From Octopus vulgaris (lineage: Eukaryota), in contig OX597819.1 in assembly GCA_951406725.2 (NCBI GenBank), forward strand, positions 132,246,001 to 132,310,000: a DNA stretch of 64,000 nucleotides, written 5' to 3'. The notes under the pieces were generated by a model. The model worked only from the letters and a program-made list of their open reading frames with translations. It was not told the DNA's origin and did not search any database. This document shows, in pieces, positions 1 through 63,255 of the stretch (within the stretch, counting starts at the first letter, position 1; each line of letters starts with the position of its first letter). Made by a program: the position numbers and the translations under genes.

Positions 1-45
1 TATTATTATTATTATTATTATTATTATTAGTATTATTATTATTAT

Positions 46-347
46 TCTATGTTTGACTTTTGCTTTATGTCTGTACAAGTTGGCTCCAAGTCTCACCCAG
101 AGACCTCAAGAAACAACAGGTTGGAAGTTCACGTTGTTGTTATGTCTAGTGTGCCATATATTTGGTTTTTTTTTGGGTGTTGTACTTGTGAATGTCTAAT
201 ACATAGATTAAAAAAAAATTGTTTTAAACCTTAGGATTACATAGAGAGTATTTTGCGTAGGATATGAGCAGTTCCCATGAGCACTATCTTTTGAATTTCT
301 GCCATTTTGGGGTTTCCTGGTATCTGACTTAGGTAGCAATCAGCCCC
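46..347 (-). mobile_element. 3' end of RLE-type (Dong/R4-like) non-LTR retrotransposon, flanked by (TAA)n on both sides
   Basis: Minus strand reads ...YLSQIPGNPKMAEIQKIVLMGTAHILRKILSM*, homologous to the C-terminus of the RLE fragments at 12437-12676 and 18398-18646. (TAT)n arrays lie at 1-45 and 348-415. Confidence 0.85.
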
Positions 348-415
348 TTATTATTATTATTATTATTATTATTATTATTATTATTACTATTACTATTATT
401 ATTATTATTATTATT

Positions 416-574
416 ACCCAGGTTACTGCTTGGAATCGAACTCGGAATCTTGGAGTTAGTAGCCCGCGCTCTTAACCACTTAGCCACATGCTCGTGGCAA
501 CAAACAAGATGAGGACAAATATCCATCAAATGTAAATAATGTACATAATTCCTCATCTCTTAAATATTGAACTG
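416..574 (-). mobile_element. tRNA-derived SINE-like element with inverted terminal piece (same family as 19505-19765)
   Basis: A-box TGGCTAAGTGG (476-486) and B-box GAGTTCGATTCC (432-443) on -. Positions 498-574 are the family's 3' tail in the opposite orientation. Confidence 0.75.
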
Positions 575-589
575 TAACACCAATAATAA

Positions 590-57888: not shown

Positions 57889-57987
57889 ACACACACACAC
57901 ACACACACACACACACACACACACACACACACACACACACACACACACACACACACACACACACACACACACACACACACACACACA
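57889..57987. repeat. (CA)n microsatellite
   Basis: Direct reading. Confidence 0.97.
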
Positions 57988-60329
57988 TTTATACATACAG
58001 AGAGAGAAAGAAATAGAGAAAGAGTGAGAAAGAACGTCGAGAAATGCAAAAAATAAAATTATACCACACTATAGAATACAGGAAGGGGAAAAAAAACTTA
58101 GAGACTTGCATCAGAAAAACACGGAACATCTTTAAATAGAAAACATGTCCTATGCCTTATTGAATAATCCGGATTATCGTTGAGACGCTGCTTAAATGTA
58201 TCAAGGAAATTCTGTAAAATAAGACCAATGTAGACTACCAAAAATATCCAACGAAAGCAGCTTAGGAAGATTGATGGGAATCAAAGTGATACGTCTAAAG
58301 AAAGATTGGAAGAAAGCAAAGCTAGTTACGAAATATTGAAATGTAGAAACTTTTAAGGGAAAATGTTTTGGGGATTATCGCAGAATCTGGGTCAGTTTGA
58401 GACGGTACCATTAATGCTGGATAGAGTATAGTCAAATAGGTAAGTTCATTTTGCAATCACAAGGTGCCGGGCTCGATCCCACCGTATGGCATATTGGGAA
58501 AATGTTTTCTATAGTCACAGGTTGATCTATACTTGGTGAGTCAAGCTGGTGAGAGGGGAAGCTGTACGGAACCCTTCAGGTGGGATGTATCCGTAATTCA
58601 AAAGATATAGGCTTGTCATATATTGTGTCATATTGATTCTACCTAAGAATTACGCTAGAGTTTCAGGAATATTCAGCTATTTACACGTTAAATCAGGGGC
58701 AAGTAATTCAGCTGATCGAACAACTGAATCCTCGTCGGTTAACCACGAAGATCCATCAATGTAAAATCAGAAACTTTAAAGAATAAAAGCCCAGTAGGAA
58801 ACTGCCATATTCCAAAATACTGGAACCAACGCATAGATGTCAAGTAGATGTGTACTTATGGTTAAAAAATACTTTCAGACGTTATTGGTGATTAAATTTT
58901 ACTGAGTTTTAACAATTTTTCTTTAACTCGATGTCTTTTGGAATAGAATTCAACTGGAACCTTAAATCTGTGAAGATTGATCATAGTGAAGGTCATGGAG
59001 TGAAATACACCTCGGCTCAACTATTTATATTCCACCTTTTCGGTCGGCATTAACAGTCACTATCGAAGTGTTTTCTGTTCCTTTAAAATGTTTGAAATGG
59101 ACCTAGTTAGTAAAGGAGACCCATAAAAACTCCTGGATTCCGGGAAGGAGTACCTCTACCGTCTCGGGGAGAAACTCCACGTCTGTCAGCTACCCGAGCA
59201 CCTTATAACTGATTGGTATCGTTTTATCTCAGTAGCTTTTAGGAAAGGCATGAACATCACAGCTCTTCACTTCATCTTCTCTTAAGTCTTAAAGCTTTTT
59301 ATGTCCACAAATTTTTCTAAGTTGGTGAAACACCATCAAGGCAGCTTGTAATTCATTGATCGATCTGTTCAAAATACAGAGAACAAAAAGGAAAAAAGAT
59401 GACGTTTTAAAACTGATATACTAAGACAGGGTAGATAAGTTTGAAGAAGACGCCATGTCTGTTATTGGAAGCAGACGATCGAAACATATTTGCATATGTG
59501 AGGTGTTGAATATGTTGTTTGCTCAATGATATTCGATTGATTTCCTGTGTGACAAAGACTTACTGAAGCAGAACTGAGTAAGGCTACTCACTAACAACAC
59601 CAATATGAACAGGAAATTGTTCAATGGTACTAAAAAACACAAAACAAAACAATGTCCATTATTTAGCCAACTGCAAAGGTTTTGTCCTGTCAAAAATAAT
59701 AATACCTAAATGACTGAAGTTTCATGAATATTTAAGACGACATTGTTACAAACCGTTAATTTGTTCGATTCTTTGAGCGCTTCTCCATTCGCTAATGTAT
59801 TTCCTTTGTCGCTTAAAGGCTTACACCAGCAACATCGTTTCATAACCCACAAACGGCGTAAATACAAGAAGCATTCGATTACATATTATGATCGACCCTC
59901 GTCTTCTTTTCTCTATTCACCTTTACAACGCTTTTATTAAACTACAAACAACGTTATACTCTCGTAATTAAACTGTTAATAGAAACAAGATTTATAACCA
60001 AGCATTAAAGAATGATTTTCCATTTTCGCTGCTATTTAATATACTGGAAACCATTTTATAATTCTTCATTAATACGACGAGCCACATTAACTCCGAAGTA
60101 GAAAGAGAAGAAATGAAAGGTTAAGGAATGGACAATGAGGAGTTTCCTCAAAGAGAATCAATGCAGTTTGTTGAGTGGGGCCGAAAAAGAAATGGTCGCT
60201 GGTCCCTTGAATAAAGTAGATGGAATCTCATGGAGAGCAGCGGCAGCTTTTCACGGGAAATTTCTCATTGAATTATTGGAGTATTTATAATAATTATTGT
60301 CTCCATGGTAACAGGTCACTTCATAAGCA

Positions 60330-60840
60330 GAAAGACAGAAAAAATAGAAAGAAAAAAGGGGAAGGGAGAGATTGAGAAAGAGAGAGAGAGAGAAAGATAT
60401 ATAGATAGATAGAAAGAGAGAGAGAGAGAGAGAGAAAGAAAGAGTGAGAAAGTATAAAGATAGGTTAAAGTATAAAGTGAGAAAGTATAAAGATACGAGA
60501 AAGAAAGAAGGAAAGAGTTATTACAAGAAAGAACGAAAGAGATATTAGTGAGAGAGAGAGAGAGAAAGATAAAAGTAGAGTAGATAAGTGAGTTGAACCT
60601 GTACAGATGTCTAAGTTAGAGAGAGAGAGAGAGAGAGAGAGAGAGAGAGGGAGAGATAGAGAGGGAGAGATAGAGAGGGAGAGAGAGAGGGAGAGAGGGT
60701 GAGGGAGAGAGAGATATGAGGAGGACAAAATAGATAGAAAGTTTGTGTGTGTATGTGAGAGAAAAAGAAAGTGAGAGAGAGAGAGAGTGTGTGTGTGAAA
60801 GAGAGAGGGAGAGAGAGAGTGAGTGAGTGAGAGAGAAGTT
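60330..60840. repeat. GA-rich low-complexity region
   Basis: Direct reading. Confidence 0.9.
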
Positions 60841-63198
60841 ATTTGCATTTATAGCTGAACGGTTCCACCGGAAATTAAATGTGGATTTTCAGCAGAGAAT
60901 AACTCTTTCATTGGGGACAAAACTAGTTGGAAAGCCATGTTGGAATATGATAAAGAATCTTTGTCTAAAATTTAACAGGAATATTTCTCAGGTCACACAG
61001 CACTATGTGTGTGTGTGTGTGTGTAATAGCGTGTTTGTGTGCATGTGTGTGTGTATGTATGTATATGTGTGCATGTGTGTACGTATGTGTGTGTGTGTGT
61101 GTGTGTATTAATTAGTATTGATGTATGAATAAGTTTGACTGGTAACGTTCTTAACGTTATCTTTTGTAATGTCGTCTGCCATAAAAAAGGTTGGATTTCG
61201 GTAAAAACGCGGCTGCGATCCTTGATTAAGTCAATTCATATAATTCTAGAATGTTGCTTAAAGAAAACAGGAAATTCTCGACTTCTGATCCTGGATTTCG
61301 TATAAGAAACGCACACGCGCACGCGCACGCGCGCGCACACACACACACACACACACACACACACACACACACACACACACAAACACAAACACACACACAC
61401 ACACAAACACAAACACACACACAAACACAAACACAAACACACACACACAAACACAAACACAAACACACACAAACACACACATATATTACATACAAACTTA
61501 CACAATCCAATGCCCACACACACACACACACACATGCACATACTACATACAAACATACACAATCCCGTACACACGCGCACACTGCACACAACTCGATCCT
61601 TAACCCCCAAGTTTTGTTAAGAGCTAAGCGTGAGAGGTGTTTGACGCAAGCTGTCACTGCCTGAGGATCAAGCATTCATCACAATTGCGGGACTTTAATC
61701 TTCTAACCAGAATTTCTTTGAAGTCTGTGGTCATCATGAAAACGAGTAGAAGCAGTTCACTGCTGGGCCAGTGAATGCGTTTAGCTCGGTGGAAGGTGTG
61801 ATATTTTGGTTAGACAACTGTTAAGAAATTATAAGTTCAGTAACCTAGTCTAGGAATTAAAAGACAGCGTGTGTGTTTATTATTAGCAGAATTACCCTCC
61901 CGAGACAAACAAATTATGTTTCAACTCTTGAGTTCATATCAATAACATTACGAACCATATACCAAAAAGAAAACAGACTTTTTTTTAAATAGAAAACTGA
62001 AATATTTGTTGTCAGTATGTCGTCATTTGGTGATGTAATTTGGTTGCCGGAGGGTTACGGCTAAGAAAGAGAGCTTTTAATTTGGGGACAGAAAAATATG
62101 AGTACCGCAAAAAGTTCGTTGCATGTTATTATTTTCTGCGATGAAAGTTGGTCTCCACGCCCCTAATAATTGCAAGGCATTGGGTCTTGACTCTTGAGAA
62201 TAATGATATATTATTCTTATTCTTTAACATAAGATTTCAATCATCTGCTTTTTCAATCATTTTGTTGTAATAGAATGGGAAATACGTGTGTGCGTGTGCG
62301 TGTGCGTTTGTGTGTGTGTGTGTGTGTGTGTGTGTGTGTGTGTGTGTGTGTGTGTGTGTGTGTGTGTGTGTGTGTGTGTGTGTGTGTGTGTGTGTGTGTA
62401 AGTAGTCCACAGCTTGAAGGGCAAGCAGGATGGGGCTGTGAATCTTGTTGCAGAAATAATCTGAAGATTGTCACATTGGAATAGACTCCGCCTCCCAAAC
62501 CCAGCTCCGTGTATTTAGCATACGTTTGTGTATATCTCGTTTACATGTGTTTTATTGTATGGGTATGCACGATGCGCTCAAATTATATACACATACATAC
62601 ATGCATTCATATGTACACACATACACACACAGAGGTAGTGATGCAGATAAATACGATTAAACTTGATGTGTGTAAATATAATACATGTACATATATAGAT
62701 GTACAAATAGGTATATATATATATATATATATATATATATATATATATATATATATATATATATATATATATAACATACATACAAAAACTAAAATATTCA
62801 GAGGAGAAAAACATAAGTATAAGGATATATAAATATTTATATATGTTTACAAATAAATTTACTTGTATATGGAGTATAAAAAATGCAGAAAACTAAGGGG
62901 AGAATGCATAACGCGACAGCTGTTTCTGGGAGGTCACAATTACGTAATAGCTGTTATGTTCATAATTAAAAGATGGAATATGCCAGAGGCCATGGGTATT
63001 CAACTCGAAGATGGATGGATATGTCTCTATGAATCCATCCGCAGAAATATACGTCCCACAAACGGCTGTTGTGTTAAAAAACTATGCATTCTTCCCTTAG
63101 TTTTCGGTACTGTTTATGTAAATATATTTGTAAATATATATATATATATATATATATATATATATATATATATATATATATATATATATATATAATAT

Positions 63199-63255
63199 AT
63201 GGCGGTGCCCCAGCATGGCTACAGCTCATAAGCTGAAACTAATCAAAATCATCAA
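63199..63255 (+). mobile_element. Ultra-short 3' terminus of the (TA)n-associated LINE
   Basis: ATGGCGGTGCCCCAGCATGGCTACAGCTCATAAGCTGAAACT plus an AATC-type tail is near identical to the reverse complement of 5715-5756. It is preceded by (TA)n and followed by ATATATA. Confidence 0.85.

Follow-up and report, generated by a model that had tools for sequence, protein, structure and literature searches.

Association of young R4/Dong-like, Tx1 and CR1 LINEs with (TAA)n, (TATC)n and (TA)n microsatellites in Octopus vulgaris

A 64,000-base stretch of the Octopus vulgaris genome (contig OX597819.1, positions 132246001–132310000; hereafter the window) carries several long interspersed nuclear elements (LINEs) embedded in microsatellites. 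Across the 2.8-Gb assembly, which was searched with these elements, young copies of three lineages lie within particular arrays at both ends: R4/Dong-like elements with a restriction-like endonuclease (RLE) in (TAA)n, Tx1-like elements in (TATC)n, and CR1 elements in (TA)n. Junction sequences make it likely that these elements enter pre-existing arrays by target-primed reverse transcription, with a strictness graded among lineages. An initial annotation of the window had proposed that each lineage targets its own microsatellite class and uses it as a safe haven, the latter a conjectural adaptive reading. Every LINE element it cited is present, and for RLE, Tx1 and CR1 the flanks depart from background motif frequencies and the arrays occur at both junctions rather than at 3′ ends alone. 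Exclusivity did not survive, as CR1 and RTE elements share (TA)n and a short interspersed nuclear element (SINE) with a Tx1 tail often sits in a SINE head.

Junctions of RLE, Tx1 and CR1 elements

Genomic copies were collected by using element ends free of repeats as queries against the octopus's own genome and keeping the best 30 loci from each search; where the 5′ end of an element fell beyond its locus, the locus was extended, and copies from the window were left out. Segmental duplicates (L054, L057 and L200) were removed, and the flanks still shared are dispersed repeats. A 5′ end was scored only if it was clear of locus edges, N gaps and undefined 5′ untranslated regions (UTRs). A junction was assigned to an array when 17 of 20 bases were periodic no more than 25 bp from it, counted beyond the element's own tail. 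The same classifier applied to 1,500 random positions provided the null, with background rates of 0.6% for AAT on the sense strand, 0.07% (1/1500) for TATC and 5.1% for TA.

Genomic RLE copies adjoin (TAA)n at 36/36 3′ and 23/34 5′ junctions, on the sense strand only and never the opposite one, and the repeat is found at 19 of the 27 5′ junctions of 5′-truncated copies; none of 70 junctions adjoins (TA)n, the commonest array. As initially annotated, all six RLE fragments in the window adjoin (TAA)n, at 10 of 12 junctions and at least one each. They comprise a minus-strand 3′ fragment (47–347; arrays 1–46 and 348–416); a 5′-truncated plus-strand copy (11696–12773; arrays 11582–11695 and 12774–12883) with a zinc knuckle (zf-RVT match), an RHD motif and a PD..D endonuclease; a further 5′-truncated plus-strand copy of the same young family (15175–15660; 96% identity; arrays on both sides); plus-strand fragments of an older family (17261–17858; array at the 3′ end only) and of a third family (17980–18809; arrays on both sides); and a 3′-truncated internal fragment on the minus strand (approximately 19080–19328; array at the 5′ end only). 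Judged by eye, 3′ ends of the older family mostly meet AAT-type repeats.

Translations of three genomic copies (L187, L194 and L201) display YMDD, CRICx7HxxxxC, RHD and PD..D..K, within one open reading frame (ORF) encoding a reverse transcriptase (RT), a CCHC knuckle and a C-terminal restriction-like endonuclease; the motif names behind these domain assignments are those we take to be standard. The solved structures nearest to the RLE protein are R2 proteins. No Cys/His finger was seen when the N-terminal frames of three full-length copies were inspected by eye; R4/Dong elements are not known to carry the zinc finger/Myb block present at the N terminus of R2- and NeSL-type proteins. Homologue and atlas searches for RLE, Tx1 and CR1 returned no useful clade names. 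Residence in (TAA)n agrees with published Dong behaviour, and domains and target together are consistent with the R4/Dong-like label.

Two other readings of RLE junctions were discarded. An inversion that split one element into the 17261–17858 and ~19080–19328 fragments is ruled out by the same RHD segment in both, and (GAA)n at RLE 5′ ends proved to be expansions within the ORF in two cases and (TAA)n(GAA)n compound arrays in three. A particular dispersed repeat carries RLE copies in its (TAA)n end at several loci (window 15683–16200, L016, L021, L192, L193 and L201), and in 14/37 cases a SINE-like repeat is found no more than 600 bp past the RLE 3′ end; (ATT)n tails of other retroposons may be a source of RLE targets. 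Short tandem duplications of element sequence at some 5′ junctions (L007, L190, L201, L051, L208 and L052) suggest repeated template jumps during joining.

For the first Tx1 family, (TATC)n adjoins 29/32 3′ and 13/20 5′ junctions, and all 29 junctions in a set anchored on full-length 5′ ends; insertion is strand-specific, and (TA)n is found at 0/52 junctions. A second family, mostly of short copies, has TATC at 22/29 3′ junctions and strict TATC at 9/29 5′ junctions, the 5′ remainder including three undecided cases and about six with short TATC or related 4-mers. Copies outside arrays have no TATC tail, and at one of them (L066) a TATC-like site is duplicated over 9 bp. Targeting of existing arrays by Tx1 is likely on this sequence evidence. 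In the window, both intact 3′ ends are followed by the repeat, as had been stated, although one is only a 77-bp tip of the second family (35868–35945, plus strand), which leads into (TATC/TGTC)n at 35946–36330 and has no 5′ array. The other belongs to a frameshifted full-length plus-strand element (38840–45030) flanked at both ends (38738–38838 and 45031–45157). A decayed minus-strand copy with an internal deletion (approximately 52020–53600), passed over initially, has no TATC flanks.

The full-length element encodes an ORF1 with a CCHC knuckle, followed by an apurinic/apyrimidinic endonuclease (APE), RT and zf-RVT. Its Pfam matches (Exo_endo_phos, RVT_1, zf-RVT and a weak zf-CCHC) describe an L1-group ORF2 layout plus an ORF1 zinc knuckle, and it is much nearer human L1 (E 1e-47) than R2 (1e-18). 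Full-length or internally deleted copies are unusually common in this family, in place of 5′-truncated ones, and it forms head-to-tail arrays at L225, L234, L239, L241 and L242. Separately, window positions 33383–33994 hold 3.3 SINE copies head to tail, with a 3′ end like that of Tx1, and in random DNA approximately 11 of 25 such SINE ends, counted by eye, join a SINE head directly and none enters TATC, which suggests that some Tx1-like lineage has the SINE itself as its target.

CR1 family a adjoins (TA)n at 21/27 3′ and 14/23 5′ junctions, counted beyond its own tail (14/23 for 5′-truncated copies alone), and family b at 23/30 and 20/28 (17/25 when truncated). Pooled, these give 44/57 3′ and 34/51 5′ junctions, independent 5′-truncation points included, against the 5.1% background. 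TA follows each of the CR1 tails, (CAAT)n, (ATCAAAGT)n and (TTTAAGGA)n. Interruption 7-mers are common to both flanks more often than in shuffled pairs in family a (0.51 vs 0.28; p=0.0005, n=23) and family b (0.30 vs 0.21; p=0.015, 26/28 scored); because the flanks share locus-specific interruptions, the arrays were likely there before insertion. It is for CR1 that this reading of the flanks, targeting of existing arrays, appears best supported.

In the window, TA adjoins each of the three CR1 insertions said to sit in (TA)n, to differing extents. The family a copy (5690–9569, minus strand) has its own (CAAT)5 tail at 5690–5711 and then only (TA)5, and its 5′ truncation in ORF1 meets (TA)48 (array 9570–9666); the element proper, 5712–9569, retains an ORF2 with APE and RT and one frameshift. 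A minus-strand fragment of family b (29068–29598), truncated at both ends, lies between (TA)n at 28978–29059 and 29599–29672, is missing approximately 180 bp at its 3′ end relative to the family and carries 10 foreign bases. The third insertion, a 57-bp plus-strand 3′ tip (63199–63255), follows (TA)n at 63122–63200 and has only about three TA units downstream. Assignment to CR1 draws on an APE–RT ORF2 with no C-terminal knuckle, on CR1-type C-terminal motifs, which we take to be diagnostic of the clade, and on a short tandem-repeat tail; an Argonauta homologue of ORF2 shares 58% identity.

Further CR1 diversity was observed. Two near full-length family a copies (L203 and L210) have differing AT-rich repetitive 5′ UTRs and a CCCH-like finger in ORF1, and L203 has a single open frame of 1,107 codons spanning APE and RT. 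L221 and L204 revealed a third family, with the (TTTAAGGA)n tail, and CR1 copies stacked within one (TA)n array. An abundant SINE whose 3′ end is shared with CR1 occurs in the window at 2270–2645, 33120–33260, 46864–47069 and 51664–52015.

RTE elements and the graded use of arrays

The initial annotation had also assigned RTE to (CATA)n, on the basis of a remnant identified here as an old RTE-like 3′ fragment (31008–31350, minus strand), whose clade rests on what we take to be an RTE C-terminal motif. The array is indeed at its 3′ end ((CATA)n 30779–31002, then (TA)31 at 30712–30773), but the 5′ flank is not CATA, and DNA and pattern searches with the remnant returned no copy besides itself. 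Positions 25200–25880 were rejected as an alternative candidate for this remnant, since they contain no RT frame and are not matched by another copy. A different family, with a short (CAATA/AAAC)n tail, is represented by a young, intact RTE found in a random region (L253). This family favours (TA)n (16/30 3′ and 10/30 5′ junctions; 7/23 in 5′-truncated copies), with TA at 26/60 junctions, CATA at 3/60 and no array at 26/60, and single loci lie within CATA, TACC/TATC and TTA arrays. Its flanks share interruption 7-mers above shuffled pairs (0.11 vs 0.03; p=0.0005). (CATA)n thus marks only the 3′ end of a single old copy and not both junctions across RTE copies, and the absence of cross-over between classes, true inside the window, does not extend to the genome.

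Restricted to 5′-truncated junctions, enrichment over chance has binomial p values from 1e-36 (RLE) to 1e-4 (RTE), with 0.009 for Tx1 (1/7). One sequence type occupies more than 20% of flanks in RLE, Tx1, CR1a, CR1b and RTE, the rule for target-specific LINEs given in the available part of PMC4494074, which is lenient at a 5% background.

These gradations could reflect two modes of insertion. RLE and Tx1 endonucleases would read the motif itself, strictly and in one orientation, as in Dong and Kibi/Koshi. CR1 would likely nick flexible TpA-rich DNA, as would RTE with less stringency, after which their AT/TA-containing tails could pair over 1–4 nt with the cut (TA)n strand and prime synthesis; with this nicking and priming mode in common, both would share one abundant (TA)n sink. 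At 5′ ends, microhomology with the array phase averages 1.1–3.4 nt vs 0.3–0.6 nt at random (n=5–14 per family).

Several observations weigh against insertion into existing arrays as a general account. The sample consists of top-identity copies of six families, biased to young copies, and is not a genome-wide table; among older fragments in 600 kb of random DNA, with approximate 3′ ends, AAT adjoins 14/33 RLE, TA 4/13 CR1 and TATC 0/12 Tx1 copies. Of the SINE with a CR1 3′ end, 46 copies were found and 35 scored, and only 6 of those scored have TA, a mild enrichment. In the first Tx1 family, a TATC array is present at just one of seven non-full-length 5′ junctions, several of these copies having chimeric or divergent 5′ regions. 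For RLE (p=0.19) and Tx1 (p=0.91) the textures of the two flanks do not agree significantly, which leaves room for a contribution from tail synthesis in both. In a search for empty alleles, the best run matched 23% of a junction stretch's words, and no empty allele was recovered.

For CR1 and RTE, (TA)n might instead be occupied with no enzymatic choice, if break-prone or open arrays captured insertions at existing nicks or if purging there were weaker. Two unrelated APE clades in one (TA)n sink, off-array CR1 sites with no clear duplications (L043 and L099) and the foreign bases at the truncated family b fragment would fit capture. However, RLE and Tx1 are absent from TA, CR1 uses TA significantly more than RTE (44/57 vs 16/30 at 3′ junctions, p=0.03; 34/51 vs 10/30 at 5′ junctions, p=0.005), and most CR1 copies keep the intact tails that normal priming predicts. 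We therefore regard such passive accumulation as unlikely.

Microsatellite load

Of the window's 64,000 bases, 5,288 lie in perfect microsatellites of at least 15 bp, and in 60 random 10-kb regions such microsatellites cover 6.7% (TA 3.0%, AAT 0.9%, AC 0.8%, ACAT 0.4% and AGAT 0.36%). LINE-driven expansion had been suggested to help explain this load and found little support. Among long arrays chosen at random, a detected LINE lies within 150 bp of 5/177 TA, 18/50 TAA, 0/22 TATC, 1/27 CATA and 2/46 CA arrays, counts that are lower bounds because LINEs were detected in 8.7% of the 600-kb random sample vs 12.9% reported for O. vulgaris in the available part of PMC13282606. Since so few random TA and TATC arrays touch a detected LINE, most of the load is not explained by these elements; (TAA)n is a possible exception. 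Summed flank arrays show no excess over a length-biased background for RLE (p=0.06), CR1a (0.07), CR1b (0.57) or RTE (0.96). Arrays at Tx1 sites are about twice the background length (median 220 vs 100 bp; n=12, against a thin background of 35 distinct arrays). Large target duplications were rejected as a source of the load, since those seen measured 9–15 bp at unique sites and, within arrays, perhaps 30–40 bp in a few cases. Arrays would mostly arise by other routes, such as slippage and SINE tails, with LINEs splitting them and adding little. Inverted duplications, possibly MITE-like (miniature inverted-repeat transposable element) arms, were also seen in the window (32126–32688 vs 37001–38343, 97–99%; 27932–28117 vs 28563–28752, 82%).

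A scheme of strict niches, in which every lineage has a sequence-specific endonuclease and an exclusive repeat, RTE/(CATA)n included, and LINE activity builds the load, gains from the mutually non-overlapping arrays of RLE, Tx1 and CR1, from RLE contact with random (TAA)n and from the longer Tx1-site arrays. It is contradicted for RTE, which uses (TA)n and enters other classes, and the length and contact data above oppose the load component, making the scheme as a whole very improbable. Least probable of all is that the arrays are element-made, by 3′ tail slippage and repeat gained in 5′ joining with no targeting: the 3′ surplus of AAT at RLE copies, several Tx1 copies with long TATC 3′ and none 5′, and the missing flank concordance of both lineages suit it, but CR1 tails are unlike TA, CR1 flank textures agree across the insertion, off-array Tx1 copies are tail-less, and RLE recurs in (ATT)n ends of other repeats.

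Relation to known target-specific elements

Insertion by target-primed reverse transcription into arrays already present thus remains the favoured reading. Microsatellite-targeting LINEs are an old idea, and a microsatellite-targeting Tx1 is already published. The preferences seen here are graded: Dong/(TAA)n is known, Tx1/(TATC)n is a new motif of a known kind, strong CR1/(TA)n is possibly unreported, and RTE is leaky. The open-access literature searched yielded neither CR1 in (TA)n nor Tx1 in (TATC)n, although subscription papers, Repbase notes or supplements may hold one; the available text of PMC13282606 has no match for 'target' or 'insertion preference', and the available parts of PMC13343379, PMC4760211 and PMC3124438 contain nothing on CR1/(TA)n. 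If enzymatic, the CR1 preference would add target specificity to a clade regarded as lacking it, and would provide young, near-intact elements for mapping its determinants. A more ambitious proposal, which we hold only tentatively and think doubtful as yet, is that the endonuclease of octopus CR1 itself encodes specificity for a target, (TA)n, which would place CR1 beside R1 and Tx1 as the third such lineage among APE-type LINEs. CR1, Dong in (TAA)n and a Tx1 targeting (TATC)n would then be co-active elements that divide the microsatellites of one genome. The association offers a neutral account of tolerance to very active octopus LINEs (Dong, CR1 and Tx1), which bears on their claimed neural role, and it advises caution with microsatellite markers in octopus genomes, which are often interrupted by LINEs.

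Comparison with known systems draws on the available portions of the papers cited. Dong, of the R4 clade, targets (TAA)n in Bombyx, Anopheles and the snail Biomphalaria (PMC3812793, which also covers Kibi, Koshi, Waldo and Mino), and Dong-R4 is the most abundant recently active LINE of O. vulgaris, in which CR1, Tx1 and RTE families are also active (PMC13282606). The window RLE elements resemble Dong in their single ORF with RT, CCHC and restriction-like endonuclease and in their (TAA)n target; they differ in that families of differing age co-occur and nest head to tail, and in that R4 placement here comes from domains and target. Kibi targets (TC)n, Koshi (TTC)n and crocodilian Tx1 (TTCC/TTTC)n (PMC4494074). 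Octopus Tx1 is likewise APE-type, oriented in its microsatellite and above the 20% level, but its (TATC)n target is not among the motifs given there, its host is a mollusc and its copies are mostly full-length and tandem. The RLE, Tx1 and R1 groups, but not CR1, account for most target-specific LINE families (PMC4640811). CR1, L2 and RTE elements show tail–target pairing, their microsatellite-like tails overlapping the target by one to several bp, with a weak nucleotide bias (PMC6007223), whereas two octopus CR1 families have (TA)n at approximately 70% of junctions. Also comparable are Waldo-A/B near (CA)n in Drosophila, ascribed to passive accumulation, and Micron in rice (TA)n (PMC3812793): octopus CR1 is similarly enriched in a dinucleotide array, although Micron, a MITE, is a DNA transposon.

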